Assembly: GCA_000004985.1 (NCBI GenBank)
Contig: GG738850.1
Origin: Naegleria gruberi
Lineage: Eukaryota
Reading direction: 5' to 3' (one strand)
DNA length: 64,000 nucleotides
In this document: piece after piece, positions 4,910 to 19,684 of the stretch
Position numbering within the stretch: the first letter of the stretch is position 1
Layout: every line of letters starts with the position of its first letter
Notes under the pieces: generated by a model
What the model was told of the DNA's origin: nothing
The model's input: only the letters and a program-made list of their open reading frames with translations
Databases searched by the model: none
Position numbers and translations under genes: made by a program

Positions 4910-7900
4910 TTACAACTTTCTAATACCTAATGGATCTGGATCTGGATTTACCAAACTTCCGCACGATGAAACACCACCAAAGTATTTACATTGAGAAACA
5001 GTCATGGTTCTTACTCTGGTTTCAGCTGTTGCTGGTGCTCCAACAAATCTCATATTATCCATCAAGAATTCAATGAAATTAGTTTGATCTGGCAAGTACA
5101 AGATAATTCTGTGAATGTTTTGAATTGGTGCAAAACCAAGTTCAGAAAGTGGAATTCTCACACGAGTCACTGTATTTCCATCAATCTTTAAATATTGAGT
5201 GTGATTAGCTTGTGTAGTGATCTTGGAAAAGTCAACAACCTTTGTAACATTCAAATAACCAAATACAATTGTCAAACTTGGAACACTTCCAGTATTATTG
5301 ACAGTCTTGATAAAGAATTCAAAATATTGATAAATACTGGTATCTACATAAATCTTATTGGAACCAATCTTGTTGAATGAAATATTTCCCTTTCTGAAAC
5401 CAAAATGCATTGATGAGTTTCCACAAATAGCTGGTGCATAACTAGCATTAACAAATGTATTTCTAATATCAGCTGGAACATAGGCATACATGGACCATTC
5501 ATTGGTCAATTTTGGACCTTCACTATAAATTGAAATAACATGGGAAGAATTCTTCAAATTTAAAGCATCACACGGTTTAACATTTGAAACCAAAGGTGGT
5601 AAATTACAACTTGTTGATGTAGCATTGTTAATATAGAGTTGAGCTCTCAAATGTCCATTTGGATTTTGAGTAGTTGATAATTTCACAAACATTTTACCTT
5701 GGAGTAAATAATTCCATTCATCATATGATAAGGCATATCCAAATCTGCTTTGAGTATATGGAATAATCTTTGAGGTTGGTGTGGCAATATAATCTTCCTT
5801 TCCTGCAAGTCCAAATCCAATATCAATTGATGTGACAATAGCATTCAAATTGTGTTGAACAGTAAAATCAAGAGAAGCTGTTTTGGAATTCAAGAATGCA
5901 AAAACGTAACCACCTCCACTTGTTGAATTGGCAGCCAATGATTTCACACTTGCTTGTTGGCATGTTTCCAATCTTCCAACAAATCTATCTTCTCTCATTA
6001 ATGTCTTATATGTTGTTCCTGCATTGCTTGGATTGGAGAATTTTGATGGTGCACAAATACCTCTTGGACATGTGGCATTCAAATAAACAACACCATATGA
6101 GTAGTAATCAACAAAGCTATCAACAACTCTGTATGATGTTCTAGAAGCTTGATTTTGGATCTTCAAGTACAAATGTTCAGTAGCATCATCATAATAGTAG
6201 TAATTCTTAGGTTCACTCAACATGGTTGTAAAGTTTGCAGTTCTGGTCATGTTAATTGTTGTTGGATTCATGAAGAATCTAATGTTGAAAATTGTTCCTT
6301 TTGGATATTGAACAGCAACAACAATCCAATCATTTGCAGCGCTTGCATCAAGGAAGAAACTCAAATCTTTTGGTGTTGGAATGTCGTATGGCCAACGAAG
6401 CCCATAGAAACCTCTTGCTACCAAATTACTTTGCATATAAAAGTCACCACTGGAGCTTAATGCACCAATAACATTGGATTGGCGATTTCTCAATAAATCA
6501 ACAAGAATCATTCTTGGAACTCTCTTTCCTGAATTGATAATATCAGGTCTACTAATACCATCACTTCCAGTTGTGTTAACACTTGTTAAATTCCAATTCA
6601 AAACACGGAATTGAGCAAAAGATTCACCAAAGAATGGACATTGATAGGCATTCCATTCAGTTCTTGCTTGACATTGTGTGAATGTCATGGTTGTGTCATT
6701 ACCAGTAATCCAACCACCAATTGATGAAATACTTGTGATTGAGCCGTCTACATCCATCAAAGCAGTGGCCTTGTGATTCTCATAATAAGTTGGATGATTC
6801 CAAGGGAAAACCATATATCTGTTTGCATTAACAAACTTTAAATTGGCATATCTATTTCTGGATTGATGTTTAAAGTAATTATTCAATGAAGATAAGGAAC
6901 CTGCATATTTGAATGAATCAGTAACAAAGTTAATAAAAGTGATATTTCTCAAATATTGTGGACCACCATTATCATAAGTTTCATAACCCTTAATCAAATC
7001 CAAATTGGAACTAATATATTGACCTGGTCTTGTTCTATTTCCAAGATCAATCTTTGGTCTGTATGAAAATTCACCAACATTTTCAGATTCACCAATAAAA
7101 GTACTATCATGAATGATACTTGGTCCTGGTGGAGAATTCATGGCAATTCTATTATCAGTTAAGAATAAATTTTTGAAACGAAGTAAACCACCACGTGCCC
7201 AAACACCATATCCTCTATTCTTATAAGCAATAAATCCATTGTAAAGTGCTTCAACAACACCTGAAGGATAATAACCAGCAAGTTCTGTACTTCCATCAGC
7301 TTTTTCCATATCATCAATGTGAAGAGCATTTCCTGATGAACTGTGACCAACATTGTTTTCAAATGGTTTTGGAGGAGCAGTTCTTGGATTAATAGAGCCA
7401 GCTGCGTATCTGTTTGCACTCAATCCAGTTGGGAATGTTGGCATTGTAAACCAAAATGGGAAACGACCACCAACTGCATGATTTCCAATGAATGTATTAT
7501 TTGGATTAGTAATCCAAAAAACTGAAACATCAGAATCAGATAAAATGATTTGACGAGGATTTTCTCTTGAGATTGGAATTGGATCAACTCCCAAATTATT
7601 GTTAAATTCATTTCCTACTTCAGATCCATCTTCCAAGAAGTACATATGACCAAAAGCACGATAACAAACATTATTCTTCAATAAAATATAATTAGTATCG
7701 TGAACAACATAACATCTTTGGAAACTGTGATGAACTGTATTATCCTTAACTGTGAAATTCAATCCAAATGGTTTGTTTTGTAACAAGTGGAAATGGAAAC
7801 TATTAATGAATAATAAGTAATAGTTAAATAAATCATTAAAAACAATATTAAATACAAGTTAAATAAAAATGATTACCAACACCAAACATACCTATATCTT

Positions 7901-8895
7901 CCCATTAAACCTTGTTGACCAAATCTTGTAATTTCAACACCTTCCATATTAAATTTATCAACCAAACGAATAATAAAGTGACCACCAAAAAGTGAACTTT
8001 CAGATGAATCATCACCTCTGAAAACAATTCTTCTTGTTAATAAACCAACTTCTGCACGAATCTTTCCATCAACACTTGCAAAGTGAGTATAATTCAATGC
8101 TCTATCTAAAATAATGGTCTTGTTTCCATTCAATAATTGAATAATCTTTCTCTCTTCATTTTGATTTGGAAATCGTTCACCACGAATCCAACCCAATGAA
8201 GCATTCTTTTCAACTCTGTAATCATATAATTCACCATAATCTGTTGAAGCAATAACAATTGAATCACCAACTCTCCATTGAACAGCTTCTTTCAATTCAA
8301 GTTGTGAACTTCCTTTGGTGGAATTCTTGATAATTTCACTCCAACTTGGACCATCAACTTTACCATAAATTTGAACAATAGATCCACTCAAAAAAGCAAC
8401 ACCTTTAGAACCCAATTTACTTCCATCGAATGGATCACTACCAATGTCATTGATAGAACTATTGACACGATCACCATACAATGTCAAGATAACTTTTGAA
8501 GTGATTGGACAATTTGAACTACCCATAATAAAACTACCATTTGATTCAACTCTAATGAAATTCAAATTCAAATTGAGATCAATATTATCAAAAATTAAAG
8601 AACCACCTGATTTAACAGTGATTGAACGTAATTTGTTTGGAGGAGAAATATTTAACTTGACAGCTTTTGTAATAACAATATCATAATTGGCAACATTCCA
8701 ACCAGTTAATGTGTTAAAATTGACCAAACCAACTTGTTGATGAGGACATTGACCTTCCACAATAATACTTTCAATCAATACACACAATAAAATTGTGCTA
8801 ATTAATGAAAGAATTACTCTTGTACTACAATGTTTGTTGTAATACATATTGTTTGTTTTTTTCAAAGTGAGAAATAAAGTGTCTCTTCCATTCAC
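4910..8895 (-). CDS. G8-domain protein of the CEMIP/TMEM2 (KIAA1199) family, 2 exons: complement(join(4910..7800,7892..8895)), intron 7801..7891
   Basis: Exon 1 has signal/anchor (ILSLISTILLCVLIES) then G8 domain (GWNVANYDIVITKAVKL...GGSLIFD...SNGSFIMGSSNCP...LTLYG); family motif GQQGLMGRY|SFHFH straddles a GTATGT...AATAG intron; downstream right-handed beta-helix-like Gly/Asn-rich repeats. Confidence 0.75.
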
Positions 8896-9831: not shown

Positions 9832-11274
9832 ATGACATTATCTTCAGCAGCAGAAACATCAGCAACATTAGAAATTTCTGGTAATTTGATTAAAAATTCA
9901 TCGGAATATGTGAGGGAAATGATAAATAATTTCGGAAGCACCAACAAGACAACACAACTATGTTCTATTGGTGGTGGATTATTGGGAAGTTTATTCATGT
10001 TAAGGTGGATTGTTGGAGTTTCTAAAAAGTCAAAGGAAAAGAAGAAGGAAATTGAAAGGATTTTCAAGGAAATTCAACAAGATTGTAGACAACAAGTCAA
10101 TGAATTGGTCAAGAAGGAAAATGTCTTGTCAAAGAAACAGAAAATTGGTGTCTTGATTGTTAATTTGGGAACTCCTTCACAAGCCACTCATCATTATGTT
10201 TACAGATATTTGTCTCAATTTTTAATGGATGGTCGTGTGATTGATGTGAGCTACTTGTTGAGATTTTTATTGGTGAGAGGAATTATTGTTCCATTCAGAT
10301 ATAAGAGATCGACTCGATTCTATCAAGAAATTTGGAAGAATAAGGATTATTCAAATTCAGAATGTTCTCCACTCAAATATAATACCACTAGTTTGGTTTC
10401 TAAAGTGAGTGAAAATTTGAAAGGATTGAATGATGACAATTGTGAATTCCAAGTGGAAATGGCCATGAGATATCAAGAACCTTCAATTGAAAGTGGTTTG
10501 AAAAAGCTTGAAGGTTGTGCACATATTGTAGTGGTGCCACTCTTCCCACAATATGCAAGTGCAACCACTGGATCTACTCATGAAGAATGCATGCGTGTTG
10601 TAATGAAATGGTTGACTATTCCAAGTTTACATTTTAATAGTACATTCAATTTGATGGACATGTTTATCAAATCCAATGTGAAGAGAATTCAAGAAGCTCT
10701 TCAAAGAACCAAGACTGAAAGAGAAAATCAACCATTCGATCACCTCCTTCTCACTTATCACAGTCTTCCAGTTCGTCATGTCACTCAAGAATTCCAAGAA
10801 AAGAAGAGTTTACAATATTCCTACTATCAACAATCCTTTGAGACTAGTGTTGCAATTTTGAAAGAATTATTCAACTGCACAGCAGAAGAATTAATCCAAG
10901 ATGAAACCAATGTTGGATGGTTTACTTACAAGAGAAGTCAATCTGATTCAAGTGATGACTATTCCTCCAATTTCACACCAACTCTCCAAATTTCCACATG
11001 TTTCCAAAGCAGATTAGGTAAGGAACCTTGGCTTGAACCTTACACCTCAAAAACTCTTGGACTCTTGGCAAAACAATCAAGTCGTGTCCTCATTGCTTGT
11101 CCATCATTCACTTCTGATTGCATTGAAACAGATCACGAATTGGAAATTGAGGAAAAGGAAGAATTCTACTTGAAGGGAGGTAAATACATGGCTGTTGCTC
11201 GATGTGTCAACGATGATGACCTATTTGCCAATGGATTGACTGATTTAATTGCTAAATATAAACAAGTTTTGTAA
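9832..11274 (+). CDS. hemH: Ferrochelatase (protoheme ferro-lyase) with N-terminal extension (probable organellar targeting/anchor)
   Basis: LIVNLGTP (cf. LNMGGP), VVVPLFPQYASATTGS (cf. YPQYSCSTTGS), LLTYHSLP (catalytic His context), C-terminal Cys cluster ACPSFTSDC. Confidence 0.85.
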   Translation: MTLSSAAETSATLEISGNLIKNSSEYVREMINNFGSTNKTTQLCSIGGGLLGSLFMLRWIVGVSKKSKEKKKEIERIFKEIQQDCRQQVNELVKKENVLSKKQKIGVLIVNLGTPSQATHHYVYRYLSQFLMDGRVIDVSYLLRFLLVRGIIVPFRYKRSTRFYQEIWKNKDYSNSECSPLKYNTTSLVSKVSENLKGLNDDNCEFQVEMAMRYQEPSIESGLKKLEGCAHIVVVPLFPQYASATTGSTHEECMRVVMKWLTIPSLHFNSTFNLMDMFIKSNVKRIQEALQRTKTERENQPFDHLLLTYHSLPVRHVTQEFQEKKSLQYSYYQQSFETSVAILKELFNCTAEELIQDETNVGWFTYKRSQSDSSDDYSSNFTPTLQISTCFQSRLGKEPWLEPYTSKTLGLLAKQSSRVLIACPSFTSDCIETDHELEIEEKEEFYLKGGKYMAVARCVNDDDLFANGLTDLIAKYKQVL

Positions 11275-11595: not shown

Positions 11596-12978
11596 ATGGG
11601 CAAGAAATCAAACTCTTCATCATCAGGCTCCTCCAGCAATTCTACTATTGGCTCTGTTCTTGGTATTTCCTTCTCCTCGGCACGTAATTCCTCTTCAAAA
11701 CCTCCACGAGAAATTATTCCTGCTCAAGAATACTATGAAAACATTCTCAAGTATACTTCCTCCACTTCAGAGGATGAATTAATTCAAGCCTTGAATAAGT
11801 ACTTGTTCAAAGCCTCTGATTTGTACTTTTATTATTATGAATTTAGTGGATGGAGGGATTTTACCAATGTAAGAAGAGCCTTCCATAAGATGGTGCAGAT
11901 GCAAACTTTCCTTTCACTATTGAGAGGAAAATACTATGTAGAAGTTACTAATAACAACAATAATAGTAGTAGTAGTAATAGTAATAATACTTCTTCAAGT
12001 AATCAGGAAGCAATTAATAATGAAGAAGCACCATCAGTAGAGAGTAAAGTCGTCCATATCGATTTTAATGCTCTGAAGAAGTCTCTCAAGTCTACACAGA
12101 GGATTGATTGTTCTTCACTTTCTGCAATTTCTAATATGGGAAAACCATCTGTGAAATCTTCCTCTAAATCTTCATCATCATCATCAGACTCTAAGAATAA
12201 TCGTGGAACAATCTTTCAAGTGGTGGAATCGGATTGTCTTGATGCAGCTGTTGCCTTAAAGACCAAACTCAAGTTGAATCCACTCATGTTGGTGAATGGA
12301 AGTTTGTCTCATCCTGGTGGAGGTTATTTGCAAGGTTCTTTTGCACAGGAAGAAGATATGTGCAGGAGATCTTCATTAGCTCTCTCATTGGATGATCCTT
12401 TCAAGATGGATGATGGTAGATCATGGTCCTATCCTTTACCAGAATTTGGAGGTGCTTATGTAGGTGATTGTTTTGTTATTAGAAAATCAGCCAAGGATGG
12501 TTATCAATTTTTGGAGAGTATTGTAAATATTTCAATGTTATCTATGGCTGCTTATGCTAATCCACCTGTGGAAAATCGAGTAATTGGAAAGGATGAGAAT
12601 GGAAAGGATATTGTGGAATGCTTTTTAGATTCAAAGCTCACATTAAGTATGAAAAAGAAGATTTCATCCTTTATTGAGATTGCTCTTCAAAAAGGTCACG
12701 ATTCTTTGGTGATTAGTGCAATTGGAGCAGGTGCTTATTCGAATCCAACATTTCACATTGCTACTCTCTTCAAAGAAGTTCTCTCCAGTGAAAATTACAA
12801 GGACAAATTTAAGATTGTTCTCTTCTCTATCATTAACGATAAGAATGCTGCCAATAATGTGAAGAATATGTATGGCACCTCACAGAAAACTAATCTTTCA
12901 ATCTTTTCCAATGTTATTCACTCTAAAGAACCTCATCTCCTTCCAACATTGGAAGAATTCATCCAACAACAAAAGTAA
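11596..12978 (+). CDS. Macrodomain protein of the bacterial-type poly(ADP-ribose) glycohydrolase family (DUF2263/TIGR02452-like) with Ser-rich N-terminus and poly-N/S inserts
   Basis: PARG signature GGGYLQGSFAQEEDMCRRSSL (GGG-x6-8-QEE, CRR[ST]); remaining sequence low complexity. Confidence 0.6.
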   Translation: MGKKSNSSSSGSSSNSTIGSVLGISFSSARNSSSKPPREIIPAQEYYENILKYTSSTSEDELIQALNKYLFKASDLYFYYYEFSGWRDFTNVRRAFHKMVQMQTFLSLLRGKYYVEVTNNNNNSSSSNSNNTSSSNQEAINNEEAPSVESKVVHIDFNALKKSLKSTQRIDCSSLSAISNMGKPSVKSSSKSSSSSSDSKNNRGTIFQVVESDCLDAAVALKTKLKLNPLMLVNGSLSHPGGGYLQGSFAQEEDMCRRSSLALSLDDPFKMDDGRSWSYPLPEFGGAYVGDCFVIRKSAKDGYQFLESIVNISMLSMAAYANPPVENRVIGKDENGKDIVECFLDSKLTLSMKKKISSFIEIALQKGHDSLVISAIGAGAYSNPTFHIATLFKEVLSSENYKDKFKIVLFSIINDKNAANNVKNMYGTSQKTNLSIFSNVIHSKEPHLLPTLEEFIQQQK

Positions 12979-13196
12979 AGAGATTTATCATTTCTCTCTT
13001 TTTATTCAAAGTTTAGTTTGCTAATCGCGATTTCAGTTTTCTGTTCATCGAATTTAAATGAAGATTCGTCATCCACAAATGATGATGCATACAAATTTCA
13101 TAAACAGAGATATCAAACTACTCAATAACCATTCAATCTATTTTAGCTTCCCTCCAAAACTTGTTTAAAAACTGTCAAATATCATTCAAAAAAAAT

Positions 13197-16100
13197 ATGA
13201 GTGGCACTTCCTGCAAAAACAAACAACTGACAGCGAATTTGCTCATCTCAGGGGAGTCCATCTCTAATGCTGTTATTTCCCATGAACACAGAGCAATTGC
13301 AAACGAACTTTGTCATCAAATTTTACAACAGGAAAATGTTGACTTGTTACAATTATTGAATTTTCAAAGGAATACAAATAATTATACAACAATGAATAAT
13401 AATTGTGGAGTTTCGGAACAAATAGGTGATGATGAAGGAGTTTCTAATCAAGGGGAGGCTCTAGTTTCGTCCAATTTATTATTGGAAGAAGGTAGTAGAA
13501 ATTCGAATAGTATTGATGGAAATAATGCGAATTCTGCTTCATTATCGTCGGAAGAATTGGATAGACTCGTCATGCCACCTCCTTCCATCAAATTAAGTCA
13601 AATTAATAGGAAAAACACTCAAAATTCCATCACGACTCCTTCATCTACCCTTTCGAATAATACTTTAAATTCTGTTGGGGCAGAATCTTTAAAACTTACA
13701 TTTTTAAATGAAAATTCTAATAGTGGAATGATAACAGGAGTGGAAATATGCATCTTGTCCAATACGAGTAATGAAATGATTTTTGTGGATCCAAATCTTG
13801 TCAAGTATTCGACAAGATTGCAAAACACATCATTGACAGGTGTAGATTCGTTAAATTCACCAGGTTTTAATGATAAGCTAATGTCTCCTCAATTTACAGG
13901 ACCTGTAAATGAGAATTCTCCTTCATTGATTGTTTCTCCTCGATTGAAGAATCAACATTCTAGGTGGTCAACTTATTACACGAGTGGAAGTACAGTTGGA
14001 TTGAGTGATTTTTTGAACACTTCTGTAAATTATGAAAATAGTGCTCTTTCCATTACTTCTTCCAATTCACTGAATAATAGTGCAATTAACAATGCATCAG
14101 AAACTAATCAGATTGTGCCCAGTGCATCTCTAATCAATTCCACAACTAATCAATCACCACTAGTGTCCCCACGAAATGGAGCAAACAATAGTTTCACATT
14201 CAATTCTTCTACTAGGAATTCTATAGTTCAGGATGAACCAAAGACGTCAACAGCTCCAAAACATCATCATCACACCATTAGCAGTTTAAACAAGAAGGAA
14301 TTTCAGCAATTTCTTCCTAGAGTCAGTTTACCAAATTATGGAGATATTTCTAGTGTTTTCAATTATTCAAATTTAGAAACTTTGAGTATGAGTGGAAATA
14401 GAACTTCATTCCATCTGGCATCTTCATCAGGAGGTGGCAATAGCAGTAGTGGACATGAAAATAACTTTTCAAAATCTTCATTCTTTAGCAAATCATTCAC
14501 TTTTGGAGGAGACAAGTATTCGAATGTTTCTATTGGAACAACAATGACATTTTCATCCATGATGGTTCCAAAAACATCACCCAGAGGTCAGGAAGCTAGA
14601 AGATTATCGAAAAATAACTTTTCCTTCTTTGGAAAACAATATATGAAAGAAGGTCAACAACAGCAACAATTAATTTCATCCACAAGTTCTGCAATTAATT
14701 TGAAAAAGGAAGAATCAATGCGGGAATCGATTGTGGAAGCATTCAGCGTTCAAGATATCATGTCAAGGAGATTTACAGATGGAGAGAATATTGAAAAATT
14801 CATGAATGGCAGAAGATCGACCACTAGTGAAATTCCAGATCATTCAGAATTACCTAGGAGAGGTTCTTCAGCAACTCCACTCCCATCTTCAACTGCTACT
14901 CAACCATCTACTGCCAAATCTCATATCAAGACTCTATCAACAGATGTAAAGAGGCAACACGAGAGAACTCCTTCCTCTCCTTTGGAAATTAACACTAGTC
15001 TGCTGGTTCCATCGAGCTCTTCTGGACAAATTCCTAAAACTCCAGAAAAGAAGAAATCCTCAAATATGTCCTCTAAGGTTAAGGAATTCTTCTCATCAAT
15101 TGGTAGAAGATCCAGAAAGAAATCGAATGCAGATTCGTTTGATCATTCTAATGATAGTTCATTACCTCCATCTCCTCCATTGAATAGTACAACGAAAATG
15201 ATAGGTCAAGAAACGAATCAAAACAGCTCAACAATGATGACTATTCCAACTTTACAGAGCTCAACTGATTTGATGGGAACAAGTCCATTCTCCAATCAAT
15301 CTCATAGCTCAACATCAACACCTCCAGTTCTATTGGATGGAAATATTCTCCTTTCTACAACACCAACCAGTACTGGATCAAGAGGAACTCTTGCAGACGA
15401 TGAGATTTCCAGTCATCATACTTTGGGAGGAAATACTCAATCAGCTCCTGCAATGACATGTACAACTAGCACTTCATTATCATCATCGCCACCTGCTTTA
15501 TCGACATTGAATGGGGCTACTCCTCTCATCGATGAAGTACATATTGACATGACAAGATCTAGAAGAGGAAGTGAAATTGAAACTCCAATCTCACCCAGTA
15601 GAAGAAGATCATCAATGAAGAAATCACCAAAGAGAAGAGAATCAATGCTCAGTAATCATACACCAGTTGTTTCTGAAATCGATCAAGGAAATTTGAAATA
15701 TCTAACCAATTTGATTGTCGATTTCAAAACTAGCTCACTTGCCTTTTCTAAACTTGTAGAAGAGTTTTCATTATTCGATTCTCTTGAAAAATCATCAGTT
15801 GATCCAGCATCTATCGTTCAGAGTCCTCTCTCAGTTGTGGAGGCACCAAGAGGAACCAAAAATCGAAGACCAACCTCAATGCACTACATTTCCAGTTCGA
15901 ATACTCCAATGGGAAGACTTTCGTCTGATTTATCCTACCTCTCTCAGCAACAATTACTCACACCAGTCACTTCAAATCCAACAATTTTCCATTGCATTAA
16001 TGAGAGAAGTAGTAATTTTTCACTCATCATTTTGAATGATATCACATTGTGTTTGTGGTACACTTTGGAAAATCAAAATCATCATGGAACTCTTTCAATC

Positions 16101-16283
16101 AAACAAAAATCTCTTTTATATGGTGGAAGTTTGGATGATAAATTGAAAGAAATTGGACTAAAGATTGAATACAAATTGAAGGAGGCCTTTGCGGCCAGCA
16201 AAGCATCAGATCACAAATCGTTAGGAGCTTTGAAGAGTAGCAAGTCAATGGAATTTAGTTTCTTCAATAAAAAAGTTCAATAA
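13197..16283 (+). CDS. About 1030-aa S/T/N/P-rich low-complexity (probably intrinsically disordered) protein, function unknown
   Basis: Single uninterrupted ORF; first ATG at 13197 (tracked start 13161 is non-ATG); no recognisable domain; basic patches RRRSSMKKSPKRRES. Confidence 0.45.
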   Translation: MSGTSCKNKQLTANLLISGESISNAVISHEHRAIANELCHQILQQENVDLLQLLNFQRNTNNYTTMNNNCGVSEQIGDDEGVSNQGEALVSSNLLLEEGSRNSNSIDGNNANSASLSSEELDRLVMPPPSIKLSQINRKNTQNSITTPSSTLSNNTLNSVGAESLKLTFLNENSNSGMITGVEICILSNTSNEMIFVDPNLVKYSTRLQNTSLTGVDSLNSPGFNDKLMSPQFTGPVNENSPSLIVSPRLKNQHSRWSTYYTSGSTVGLSDFLNTSVNYENSALSITSSNSLNNSAINNASETNQIVPSASLINSTTNQSPLVSPRNGANNSFTFNSSTRNSIVQDEPKTSTAPKHHHHTISSLNKKEFQQFLPRVSLPNYGDISSVFNYSNLETLSMSGNRTSFHLASSSGGGNSSSGHENNFSKSSFFSKSFTFGGDKYSNVSIGTTMTFSSMMVPKTSPRGQEARRLSKNNFSFFGKQYMKEGQQQQQLISSTSSAINLKKEESMRESIVEAFSVQDIMSRRFTDGENIEKFMNGRRSTTSEIPDHSELPRRGSSATPLPSSTATQPSTAKSHIKTLSTDVKRQHERTPSSPLEINTSLLVPSSSSGQIPKTPEKKKSSNMSSKVKEFFSSIGRRSRKKSNADSFDHSNDSSLPPSPPLNSTTKMIGQETNQNSSTMMTIPTLQSSTDLMGTSPFSNQSHSSTSTPPVLLDGNILLSTTPTSTGSRGTLADDEISSHHTLGGNTQSAPAMTCTTSTSLSSSPPALSTLNGATPLIDEVHIDMTRSRRGSEIETPISPSRRRSSMKKSPKRRESMLSNHTPVVSEIDQGNLKYLTNLIVDFKTSSLAFSKLVEEFSLFDSLEKSSVDPASIVQSPLSVVEAPRGTKNRRPTSMHYISSSNTPMGRLSSDLSYLSQQQLLTPVTSNPTIFHCINERSSNFSLIILNDITLCLWYTLENQNHHGTLSIKQKSLLYGGSLDDKLKEIGLKIEYKLKEAFAASKASDHKSLGALKSSKSMEFSFFNKKVQ

Positions 16284-17251: not shown

Positions 17252-18430
17252 TTATTCCTCGTTCTCTTCTTCTTCGTCTTCTTCGTCTTCCTCGTCTTCA
17301 TCACTTGTGTTATCTTCTTGTGTTTGTCCAACATTGATTTCTTCATCAAATTCCTCTTCCTCTTCTTTAGTTTCATGAGGCGTTCTTAAAGAATTGGTAA
17401 GTAACACATCCAATTCCTTCAAATCACTATTATTCTTCAAAATTCTTCTACTTTTCAATAGAGAAGTGGTGATTGCCTTTCCATATGGATACGACAATTT
17501 AGTAATCTTGCAATTTGGGAATAAATATTTCAGAACTATTGCCATTGCCTTGTCGGCTTTCAATTTAAGGAATGAGCAGTCAAATTCCACTTTCTGAACA
17601 ATATATTGATCAGCATTCTCTTCCTCTTCTGAATTCTCCATAACAGAAATAGTCACTGATTTTAATTGTTTGGAATATCTTGTCACAATCTTGTATATTT
17701 GACTAATATTCACACAGAAAGCATCTGGATGGAACATTATCCTACCAAAATTAGGACTACAACTGAAAATAACATCCAACGATCCATAGACATTTAGTGG
17801 TCCATTCTCAGAATATCCATAAGTGGCATAAGAGAAATTCTCAATTACTTCCAACTCAGTCAATGCCAACTTTTCTTCACATCCACATTCTAAATCTGCA
17901 AAATCAAACACTCTCAACACCTCCAAGCTCGGTATCTTTTTCACAATCTTCCAAACTTGGTCAGAAAACACATATCCATAATACAAGTACTTGAGCTTTT
18001 TGAAATACTTTTCAATAAATGGCAAAAAGTAATAATCATCCATAAGCGGAATCCTCAATCTTTCCACTCTATTCAATTTACTCAAATTTTCATCATCTTC
18101 CTCTTCATCAGGAACAAACTCCCTCGCAAATTTCAAACTCCTCACCAAGGACATATTCGGAATGGCACGTTTCAATGGATACCTGACAATCACATCATTA
18201 AAACACTCACTCTCCGGATCAACCATTACTTCATGAAACATTTTCGAAACATGAACCAAATTGCAAACTCTCGTCTCCTTCGGAACAAATTGCAAAATAT
18301 GAATCAAGATTTCCCGAGGAATCTTTTCGATGAAATTATTAAATATGACGAGGTTTTCATCGTCATCTTCATTTGCTTTTGATTTTTTCCTCTTATTCGT
18401 TGGATTTGTTGTGCTTTCACGTTTTTTCAT
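17252..18430 (-). CDS. F-box-like protein with acidic E/D-rich C-terminal tail; tandem paralog of the next gene
   Basis: N-terminal PREILIHILQFVP...VCNLVHVSKMFHEVM (F-box-like); shares blocks YSYATYGY[SD]ENGPLN, FDCSFL, KAMAIVLKYLFPNC with the 18563..19684 gene. Confidence 0.55.
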   Translation of the reverse strand: MKKRESTTNPTNKRKKSKANEDDDENLVIFNNFIEKIPREILIHILQFVPKETRVCNLVHVSKMFHEVMVDPESECFNDVIVRYPLKRAIPNMSLVRSLKFAREFVPDEEEDDENLSKLNRVERLRIPLMDDYYFLPFIEKYFKKLKYLYYGYVFSDQVWKIVKKIPSLEVLRVFDFADLECGCEEKLALTELEVIENFSYATYGYSENGPLNVYGSLDVIFSCSPNFGRIMFHPDAFCVNISQIYKIVTRYSKQLKSVTISVMENSEEEENADQYIVQKVEFDCSFLKLKADKAMAIVLKYLFPNCKITKLSYPYGKAITTSLLKSRRILKNNSDLKELDVLLTNSLRTPHETKEEEEEFDEEINVGQTQEDNTSDEDEEDEEDEEEENEE

Positions 18431-18562: not shown

Positions 18563-19684
18563 TTAGAGTCCATCATCTTCTCCATCTTCATCATATTCTT
18601 CCTCTTCCTCATCATCCTCCTCTTCATCATCATCTTGATCGTCTTCATCTTCTGCAGCTTTGACGAGTAGATTTTCCAAAATTTGCAAATCATTCTCATG
18701 TTTCAAGATCTTTCTCTTTTCCAAAAGTTCTCTTGTAATTTTCTTTCCTTTTATGCTAGATTCCAAAATTGTAATTTCACAATTTGGAAATAAATATTTG
18801 AGAACAATTGCCATACTCTTGTTGGCTCTCACCGCGAGGAATGAACAATCGAAATCTATTTTTTGAACTTGATTTGGTTCAGAATCTGTATTAGGATCGA
18901 CATCTTCCAAAATGGAAAGAGTTATCAATTCCAATTGTTTCCAATGATCTGTAATAATCTTGTATAATAAACTTAAATTGATATAGAAAGAATCAGCATG
19001 GAATTGAATTCTTTCCAATTTAGGACAAGATTTGAATATACTTTGCACTGTTTTGTTAAAATTCAATGGTCCATTTTCATCATATCCATAAGTGGCATAT
19101 GAATAATCCATAACGACTTCCAAATCAGTCAAATTTAAATTTGCATTTTCAAATTCTGATTCTTCCAAATCTACAACCTTTAACACTTGCAAATTTGGTA
19201 ATTTCTGTAAAAGTTTCCATAATTCATCATTAAGTATTTGTCCAAAAAATAAATATTTTAAATTTGAAAAATAATTTTCTATAATTGGCAAGTATTCGAA
19301 ATCTTCTTGAAGTGGAATGTATAATTTTTCAATATTTAGTTTTTTTAAAGCTGCAAAATGTTTCTTTTCAACAAGAAAATTCTTTTTCATTTCCAAACAT
19401 TTCACAAGTGAAAAATTAGGAATTTTGTATTCGAAAGGAAACAAGACTAAAGTTTGATCAAAGAAACTGTTTTGTGGATTGTAGATTATTTGATGGAAAT
19501 TCTTGGAAACAAAAACCAAAGAATTTGTTAACGTTTCGGAAGGAACAAGACGAAATATTTCTATTAAAATTTCTTGTGGCACAGTTTCGAATAATTTTGG
19601 ATCAAACTTGATGAGCGGTTCATCATCATGGTTCAGTTTGGCTTTTTTAGAGGATTTTACATTATTTGCATTGTTTCGTTTCAT
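18563..19684 (-). CDS. F-box-like protein, paralog of 17252..18430, acidic C-terminus
   Basis: VPQEILIEIFRLVP...LVFVSKNFHQII; same conserved blocks; about 35-nt near-identical nucleotide stretch in both genes (caatttggg/aaataaatattt...attgccat). Confidence 0.55.
   Translation of the reverse strand: MKRNNANNVKSSKKAKLNHDDEPLIKFDPKLFETVPQEILIEIFRLVPSETLTNSLVFVSKNFHQIIYNPQNSFFDQTLVLFPFEYKIPNFSLVKCLEMKKNFLVEKKHFAALKKLNIEKLYIPLQEDFEYLPIIENYFSNLKYLFFGQILNDELWKLLQKLPNLQVLKVVDLEESEFENANLNLTDLEVVMDYSYATYGYDENGPLNFNKTVQSIFKSCPKLERIQFHADSFYINLSLLYKIITDHWKQLELITLSILEDVDPNTDSEPNQVQKIDFDCSFLAVRANKSMAIVLKYLFPNCEITILESSIKGKKITRELLEKRKILKHENDLQILENLLVKAAEDEDDQDDDEEEDDEEEEEYDEDGEDDGL

Follow-up and report, generated by a model that had tools for sequence, protein, structure and literature searches.

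A microbial-type poly(ADP-ribose) glycohydrolase gene in the genome of Naegleria gruberi

Gene structure and family assignment

We examined a 64,000-nucleotide stretch of the Naegleria gruberi genome (GenBank assembly GCA_000004985.1, contig GG738850.1), hereafter called the window, which carries a gene for a poly(ADP-ribose) glycohydrolase (PARG) of the microbial, or bacterial, type; enzymes of this kind take off ADP-ribose marks. In the program-made list of open reading frames (ORFs), positions 11596..12978 (+) form an uninterrupted frame with an ATG start, encoding 460 amino acids. Followed by its stop codon, it represents a complete single-exon coding sequence, as supported by the ORF list, by the identity of its product to an NCBI protein, and by matches to PF10021 and TIGR02452. 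Along its entire length, the product shares 100% identity with N. gruberi XP_002681414.1 (EFC48670.1, UniProt D2V3N8, NAEGRDRAFT_63432), and the public gene model, also single-exon, is the same as this ORF.

The protein matched the Pfam profile PF10021 (PARG_cat_microb, formerly DUF2263) with E=9.1e-17 and 62.2 bits (cut-off 23.5), and the NCBIfam profile TIGR02452 with E=2.3e-23 and 83.1 bits (cut-off 50), in the latter case with residues 197-423 aligned to positions 48-262 of the 266-position profile. Both scores far exceed chance. The Pfam scan of this protein yielded no other family at E<=1, canonical PARG included. At the sequence level, solved PARG structures from Deinococcus radiodurans (5zd*, E=4e-08) and Thermomonospora curvata (3sig, E=6e-06) were matched over a region spanning the catalytic and diphosphate loops. 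The PARG signature GGG-X6-8-QEE, as defined previously (PMC8120803, PMC4245714), is present as G241-G242-G243-YLQGSFA-Q251-E252-E253, with a spacing of 7, at the beginning of the stretch GGGYLQGSFAQEEDMCRRSSL (residues 241-261, positions 12316-12378).

The gene encodes a microbial-type PARG (PF10021/DUF2263/TIGR02452) and not a canonical eukaryotic one. Scores above both hidden Markov model (HMM) cut-offs, the signature, a macrodomain fold with an N-terminal element, and a diphosphate loop were all found, and the protein has neither the catalytic-domain profile of canonical PARGs nor their accessory B domain and tyrosine clasp. The initial annotation of this region had assigned the motif to the microbial PARG/DUF2263 signature, rather than to that of canonical PARG, and the gene to a eukaryote. 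The HMM searches upheld the former, with significant matches to both TIGR02452 and PF10021, and identity to the N. gruberi protein bore out the latter, the host being a heterolobosean, not an amoebozoan or a fungus.

Domain structure and ligand-binding residues

An AlphaFold2 model built from a 90-sequence alignment had a mean predicted local distance difference test (pLDDT) score of 87.9 and a predicted template modelling score of 0.88, with low pLDDT confined to residues 1-20, ~121-148 and ~181-203. When the model was compared with PDB entries by Foldseek, the PARG of T. curvata (TcPARG, 3sig) came first, with E=8.7e-12 and a template modelling (TM) score of 0.79 on the target, followed by entries for the PARG of D. 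radiodurans (DrPARG). Ranks 1-13 were all occupied by TcPARG and DrPARG, generic macrodomains appeared from rank 14, and the 50 best PDB fold matches did not include a canonical PARG.

The protein begins with a basic poly-Ser segment (residues 1-20, positions 11596..11655, MGKKSNSSSSGSSSNSTIGS), which is predicted to be disordered (pLDDT 41-52). Possible N-myristoylation of its MGKK terminus was considered and dropped, because Lys at position 3 would violate the PROSITE pattern. Next comes a structured extension (residues 21-99, positions 11656..11892, pLDDT ~90-95), which starts with VLGISF, aligns with relatives from Heterolobosea and Balamuthia, and is gapped in TcPARG and DrPARG. Residues 100-180 (11893..12135) align to TcPARG residues ~7-45 and are the equivalent of its N-terminal helical accessory element, although broken by a poly-N/S insert at residues ~117-148 (11944-12039), with pLDDT of 53-62 inside it and >90 in the flanking residues. 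A second low-complexity, poly-Ser insertion, predicted to be disordered (residues 181-203, positions 12136..12204, pLDDT 53-68), is variable or absent in orthologs and deleted in N. fowleri. It is followed by the PARG-type macrodomain core (residues 204-445, positions 12205..12930), defined by the TIGR02452 match and Foldseek, in which the alignment and the model place a beta-hairpin insertion at residues ~325-344. All of these segments lie on the plus strand. The poly-N/S tracts proper (residues 5-16, ~117-136 and ~186-203) correspond to gaps when bacterial homologs are aligned, and in orthologs they differ or are missing; together with their position in the low-pLDDT segments of the model, this agrees with the initial view of them as eukaryote-style insertions, predicted here to be disordered loops.

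To map individual residues, the TcPARG and DrPARG sequences were rebuilt from PDB alignments, with numbering anchored by the E115A mutant in 3sij. The catalytic loop GGG-X7-QEE (residues 241-253, positions 12316..12354), placed by this mapping and by conservation in 247 homologs, has G241-G243 at TcPARG G103-G105 and Q251-E252-E253 at Q113-E114-E115, so that E253 corresponds to E115 of TcPARG and E112 of DrPARG; S236 shortly before it corresponds to TcPARG S98. The diphosphate-binding loop G377-A-G-A-Y381-S-N383-P-T (12724..12750) aligns with TcPARG G223-C-G-V-F227-G-N229-D-P, with G377-A378-G379-A380-Y381 corresponding to G223-C224-G225-V226-F227, and N383 to N229. In the C-terminal “ribose-cap” region (12883..12906), F437 is the counterpart of TcPARG F272, and N433 occupies the cap position held by R268 in TcPARG and T267 in DrPARG. 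The signature and the glycines of the diphosphate loop are near-invariant across the 247 homologs.

Relatives and subfamily structure

When 1.84 billion representative sequences were searched exhaustively with HMMER, the N. gruberi protein had 4,419 relatives at E<=1e-3, including 82 at E<=1e-30. A word-indexed search with the full protein had returned 13 matches only, probably owing to low-complexity words, and a domain-only profile rerun was dominated by mainstream bacterial TIGR02452 proteins. The named members among the closest relatives are all eukaryotic. Heterolobosea are represented by N. fowleri, N. lovaniensis, Willaertia magna, Acrasis kona and Heterolobosea sp. BB2, and Amoebozoa by Balamuthia (two copies, one annotated with a UBA domain), Stenamoeba, Ceratiomyxa and Copromyxa. 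Relatives from the bdelloid rotifer Rotaria are long multi-domain proteins, and two further relatives share their contigs with eukaryote-type genes (F-box, ankyrin, GST and DEAD-helicase on one; ESCO-type acetyltransferase and DUF2009 on the other). Close orthologs are 50-79% identical to the N. gruberi protein and keep the same motifs; over the domain, identity is 30-49% for the representatives listed outside Heterolobosea and 24-31% for mainstream bacterial TIGR02452 proteins.

A neighbor-joining tree of 247 domain sequences (200 columns, 100 bootstraps; giant-virus sequences not included) is split with bootstrap 99 into 93 sequences of the TcPARG/DrPARG type and 154 of the N. gruberi type, with all 131 of the nearest representatives present in the tree on the N. 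gruberi side, along with a few bacterial sequences such as one from a Synergistaceae metagenome-assembled genome. Those on the N. gruberi side that have a name are for the most part eukaryotic (Amoebozoa, Heterolobosea, rotifers), with one bacterial metagenome-assembled genome in addition. The protein joins a Heterolobosea clade (bootstrap 78) of Naegleria, Willaertia, Acrasis and two unnamed sequences, apart from the TcPARG/DrPARG-type subfamily, the G-C-G-V-F-x-N-D-P loop of which it also does not have. Deeper branches on the N. gruberi side have bootstraps of 0-30, and we therefore make no claim as to the sister group of the Heterolobosea clade or the donor. Given the presence of orthologs and paralogs across Heterolobosea, and of Amoebozoa and rotifers in the wider subfamily, the gene is old within Heterolobosea and is not lineage-restricted. 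Thus, of the two possibilities initially offered, an anciently acquired gene or a lineage-restricted one, the old age is retained and the lineage restriction is abandoned; the ultimate origin could be bacterial, viral or early eukaryotic.

The two sides of the tree also differ in the diphosphate loop. Position 384 is Pro in 150 of the 154 N. gruberi-type sequences, forming an “N-P-P” loop (N-P-T in the N. gruberi protein itself), as opposed to Asp, Asn or Glu in the TcPARG/DrPARG type (“N-D-P”). The ribose-cap position, N433 in N. gruberi, is Asn in 139 of the same 154 sequences. It was reported that Arg268 at this position enforces exo-only action in TcPARG, and that Thr267 leaves the 2'-OH exposed in DrPARG (PMC6445106); as DrPARG is a family member with Thr, Arg at the cap would not be a defining feature of the family. 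In DrPARG, the changes T267R/K lowered activity. The N. gruberi-type subfamily is also marked by a longer structured N-terminus. In a sub-clade around the N. gruberi protein, a Lys-rich or basic stretch precedes a PFGI/PLGI motif, which lies within the first ~40 residues and corresponds to VLGISF at residues 21-26 (11656-11673), which the AlphaFold2 model confidently places as a beta-bridge. Motifs of this type were seen in 17 of the 91 sequences with long N-termini, versus 0.5% in shuffles; the relatives that carry it are P0004, P0005, P0007, P0015, P0016, P0019, P0021, P0024, P0027, P0031, P0040, P0044, P0046, P0074, P0082 and P0130. The NPP-loop subfamily has no solved structure, and we did not find the NDP/NPP split, the near-universal cap Asn, or the basic stretch with its PFGI/PLGI motif described in the literature that we consulted.

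A structure search of BFVD revealed microbial-type PARG proteins in giant viruses of amoebae and other protists, namely Pandoravirus neocaledonia, Harvfovirus, Sylvanvirus, Tupanvirus, Orpheovirus, Marseillevirus and Bodo saltans virus. Canonical PARGs of baculoviruses in the same library were matched with E ~1e-5 and TM scores of 0.24-0.31. It is possible that giant viruses provided a route for the spread of PARGs among protists.

Genomic context

The gene sits on a 708-kb scaffold and does not stand out from its surroundings. Its GC content is 0.360, and 0.306 at third codon positions (GC3), compared with 0.351 and 0.304 for the ferrochelatase gene located 320 bp upstream and 0.359 and 0.269 for the ORF downstream; GC content stays at 31-38% throughout the window. 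The neighbors are ordinary eukaryotic genes, coding for ferrochelatase, G8/CEMIP-like and HSP70-like proteins, along with two weak, sub-threshold F-box-like ORFs. With a composition equal to that of its neighbors and with eukaryotic flanks, the PARG gene is a fully integrated part of the host genome, in line with the initial suggestion that it has become acclimated there. A tblastn search of the window with the protein yielded no second copy or pseudogene, indicating that paralogs are not clustered at this locus.

These data also bear on whether the gene could be a recent horizontal transfer from bacteria or an assembly contaminant. The family owes its name and first structures to bacteria, and the few bacterial sequences in the same subfamily, such as that from Synergistaceae, would be compatible with such an origin. 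However, the GC and GC3 values equal to those of flanking genes, the eukaryotic flanks (ferrochelatase, G8/CEMIP-like, weak F-box-like), the 708-kb scaffold, the eukaryote-style low-complexity inserts and the orthologs in other Heterolobosea (N. fowleri, N. lovaniensis, Willaertia, Acrasis) all speak against it, as does the eukaryotic nature of the nearest relatives, which are 33-49% identical, versus 24-31% for mainstream bacterial proteins. We regard a recent bacterial origin or contamination as extremely improbable, and reject it on the grounds of composition, flanks and orthology.

Other features of the locus may be summarized as follows. The ferrochelatase gene (9832-11274, +; PF00762, E=9e-77) codes for an N-terminal extension of ~100 residues with a hydrophobic stretch, LCSIGGGLLGSLFMLRWIVGV, which is perhaps a targeting or anchor segment. 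Directly downstream of the PARG gene lies a Ser/Thr/Asn-rich ORF of 1040 amino acids (13161-16283, +) without a match in the Pfam scan; its product is probably a largely disordered Naegleria-specific protein, and, with TTG as the listed start, the true ATG is probably situated further in. On the opposite strand, the Pfam scan identified two adjacent CEMIP/TMEM2-like ORFs (4910-7786 and 7873-8895, -). The upstream ORF contains a G8 domain and matches the CEMIP beta-helix over its first ~37 positions, and the downstream ORF resumes at beta-helix position 50 and continues into CEMIP domain X and a weak, sub-threshold CHRD match; the two probably constitute one gene interrupted by a short intron or a frameshift. 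Finally, two tandem ORFs of 392 and 373 amino acids (17252-18430 and 18563-19684, -), each with a weak N-terminal F-box-like match below the Pfam cut-off, look like a local tandem duplication.

Proposed function

In PARG catalysis, as the ribose-ribose bond is broken, the second Glu of the signature donates a proton to the leaving 2'-OH group, and the first Glu activates a water molecule, the attack of which on the oxocarbenium releases ADP-ribose (PMC4030884, PMC8120803). Glu-dependent hydrolysis of poly(ADP-ribose) (PAR) has been demonstrated for bacterial members as well as for canonical PARGs (PMC6445106, PMC8120803, PMC11833690): activity is abolished by E112A in DrPARG (PMC6445106) and by mutation of the equivalent Glu in SCO0909/DRB0099 (PMC11833690). 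The diphosphate is held in DrPARG by main-chain amides of the G-x-G-x-F loop (PMC6445106). The aromatic residue of this loop, Tyr381 in N. gruberi, would position the distal ribose. Since all catalytic and loop elements are present in the N. gruberi protein, it would most likely act as a Glu-dependent ADP-ribose O-glycosidic hydrolase on PAR, and we consider it likely overall to be a catalytically competent bacterial-type PARG. Retention of orthologs in N. fowleri, N. lovaniensis, Willaertia and Acrasis argues in favor of this assignment.

From studies of TcPARG, DrPARG and canonical PARGs, we infer that the protein is enzymatically active, that PAR is its physiological substrate, and that single residues play the corresponding roles. 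An ADP-ribose unit would be bound in the cleft between the GGG-X7-QEE loop (residues 241-253) and the diphosphate loop (residues 377-383), and the ribose(1''->2')ribose O-glycosidic bond of PAR would be cleaved, with E253 serving as a general acid on the leaving 2'-OH and with water positioned by E252 attacking the oxocarbenium intermediate to yield free ADP-ribose. PARP genes have been reported in N. gruberi (PMC4245714), and the protein and its paralogs would erase the PAR made by N. gruberi PARPs. Because Asn433 resembles the situation with Thr267 of DrPARG, endo-cleavage is conceivable; as a speculation, the bound unit may, like that in DrPARG, have an accessible 2'-OH, allowing some cleavage within the chain.

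Several observations weigh against PAR hydrolysis. The literature that we searched contained no biochemically tested member of the NPP-loop subfamily: the characterized enzymes (those of T. curvata, D. radiodurans and H. aurantiacus, and SCO0909) are all bacterial, and TcPARG and DrPARG fall into the other subfamily. In the diphosphate loop, Ala378 occupies a position that is Cys in 145 of the 154 subfamily sequences and only rarely Ala (4/154), and Tyr381 replaces Phe227 of TcPARG, a substitution shared by part of the subfamily (Tyr 67/154, Phe 78/154). The structured N-terminal extension of ~100 amino acids is a further departure from the characterized enzymes. Moreover, the existence of several paralogs, some with a degenerate GGG, suggests sub- or neo-functionalization.

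Vahlkampfiids have at least two paralog lineages, the second set forming a weak cluster of its own (bootstrap 30), and one Willaertia sequence joining the lineage of the N. gruberi protein instead (bootstrap 54). Members of the second lineage (P0004, P0005, P0007, P0008, P0015 and P0017, from Willaertia, N. lovaniensis, N. fowleri and others) are 580-675 amino acids long, contain long Lys/Glu-rich inserts, and have a degenerate glycine triplet (GGK, GGA or AGS) with the QEE kept; judging from these sequences, it is possible that they are neo-functionalized or reader-like. The second lineage matches the remark of Perina et al. on partially conserved signatures (PMC4245714).

By extension, the protein described here could itself be a non-catalytic reader of ADP-ribose or PAR, i.e. 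a pseudo-enzyme, or a decaying paralog of a seven-member family. Perina et al. noted degenerate signatures in several N. gruberi copies and doubted their functionality (PMC4245714), and the GGK/GGA/AGS replacements in the sister paralog clade and the Ala in place of the conserved loop Cys point in the same direction. This copy, however, has the complete GGG-X7-QEE and every other mapped ligand-binding residue, an intact ORF and a confident predicted fold, and its motifs recur in close orthologs at 50-79% identity. Since its signature is complete, a pseudo-enzyme role is unlikely, and we assign little probability to it.

We also observed that the N. fowleri ortholog FDP41_000498 (P0003) has a diphosphate loop that reads GCRAY, with Arg in place of the Gly that corresponds to TcPARG G225 and is kept in 147 of the 154 subfamily members. 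This replacement could either impair ADP-ribose binding in the copy of the pathogen or stem from a sequencing or annotation error.

A competent enzyme need not have PAR as its substrate. The 2'-OH of RNA can be ADP-ribosylated through the same 1''->2' linkage, as can phosphorylated ends of DNA or RNA, and removal of such modifications could serve repair, or immunity against ADP-ribosyltransferase toxins of bacteria that are eaten or hosted, with paralog expansion arising from toxin conflict. SCO0909, DRB0099 and human PARG reverse the 2'-OH RNA and phosphate-end ADP-ribosylation made by RhsP2 and protect E. coli from the toxin (PMC11833690), and the same catalytic machinery is kept in the N. 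gruberi protein. N. gruberi has multiple members of the family (PMC4245714), several of the named relatives belong to phagotrophic amoebae, and structurally similar PARGs occur in the amoeba-infecting Pandoravirus, Harvfovirus, Tupanvirus, Orpheovirus and Marseillevirus. On the other hand, no eukaryotic member provides direct evidence for such a role, the gene is not linked to a toxin or defense gene in the window, and, the chemistry being identical, activities on nucleic acids and on PAR are not mutually exclusive. A role in nucleic acid de-ADP-ribosylation is plausible for a bacterivorous amoeba with several paralogs, but as the principal function of this protein we view it as a minority option, and hydrolysis of PAR is preferred.

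A broader proposition is that the NPP-loop subfamily as a whole is functionally distinct, with its own substrate or mode of action, e.g. as a nucleic-acid de-ADP-ribosylase or endo-PARG in amoeba-microbe conflicts. We put it forward tentatively, with the odds being against it. If true, the subfamily would constitute a new eukaryotic and viral module for ADP-ribose reversal, which might, for example, cleave PAR internally, or else strip ADP-ribose off RNA or DNA and so protect phagotrophic amoebae against bacterial or viral ADP-ribosyltransferases, and the expansion of Naegleria paralogs would reflect an arms race.

Comparison with known PARGs

Bacterial-type PARGs in eukaryotes have reportedly been known since the first work on TcPARG, and UniProt orthologs of the N. 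gruberi protein already bear the name “Microbial-type PARG catalytic domain-containing protein”. They have been described in filamentous fungi, a rotifer and some protozoa (PMC6445106, PMC4030884), and Perina et al. 2014 found them in all eukaryotic supergroups except Plantae, with up to seven in N. gruberi, three of which have a fully conserved motif (PMC4245714). The occurrence of such a gene in a eukaryote is thus established knowledge and not a new finding, and the gene, being of a catalogued kind within a known family and a published genome, has small value as a discovery. Its residual value lies in the eukaryote- and virus-rich NPP-loop subfamily, and it may be relevant to PAR turnover in a genus that includes the pathogen N. 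fowleri. Like the fungal, Adineta vaga and protist proteins in the survey by Perina et al., it is a PF10021 protein with a complete GGG-X6-8-QEE. It fits one of their three full-signature N. gruberi copies, an identity that we infer, as the paper lists no Naegleria accession; the same paper differs from the present analysis in having no description of the subfamily split or the N-terminal motif.

Canonical PARGs (human, Tetrahymena; Pfam PARG_cat) employ the same catalytic chemistry, with GGG-X6-8-QEE in a macrodomain (PMC4030884), and differ from the N. gruberi protein in their N-terminal accessory domain and tyrosine clasp, both described in PMC4030884.

Among viral proteins, the best structural match is A0A2U7UDI9 of Pandoravirus neocaledonia (E=1.8e-23, TM 0.61/0.73, 373 aligned columns, 28% identity), which is closer to the N. 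gruberi model than any solved bacterial PARG. The putative PARGs of giant viruses are 21-29% identical to the N. gruberi protein, farther than its cellular eukaryotic relatives at 33-49%.

TcPARG (PDB 3SIG/3SIH/3SIJ), the founding structure of the bacterial-type PARG/DUF2263 family, shares with the N. gruberi protein the macrodomain with an N-terminal helical element, GGG-X7-QEE, the diphosphate loop, and the Ser and Asn positions. It is ~19% identical, belongs to the other subfamily (“NDP” versus “NPP”), has Arg268 at the cap in place of Asn433, and lacks the structured N-terminal extension of ~100 amino acids, the two inserts predicted to be disordered, and the beta-hairpin at ~325-344.

DrPARG (DRB0099; PDB 5ZDA-5ZDG) is bacterial and operon-encoded, has a length of ~250-280 amino acids, and also represents the Tc/Dr-type subfamily. 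Its endo- and exo-hydrolysis of PAR (PMC6445106) and its de-ADP-ribosylation of RNA 2'-OH (PMC11833690) have been shown experimentally. DrPARG is the best PDB match at the sequence level (E=4e-08), and the two proteins have in common the signature, the catalytic Glu and a small polar residue at the cap position, Thr267 in DrPARG and Asn in N. gruberi.

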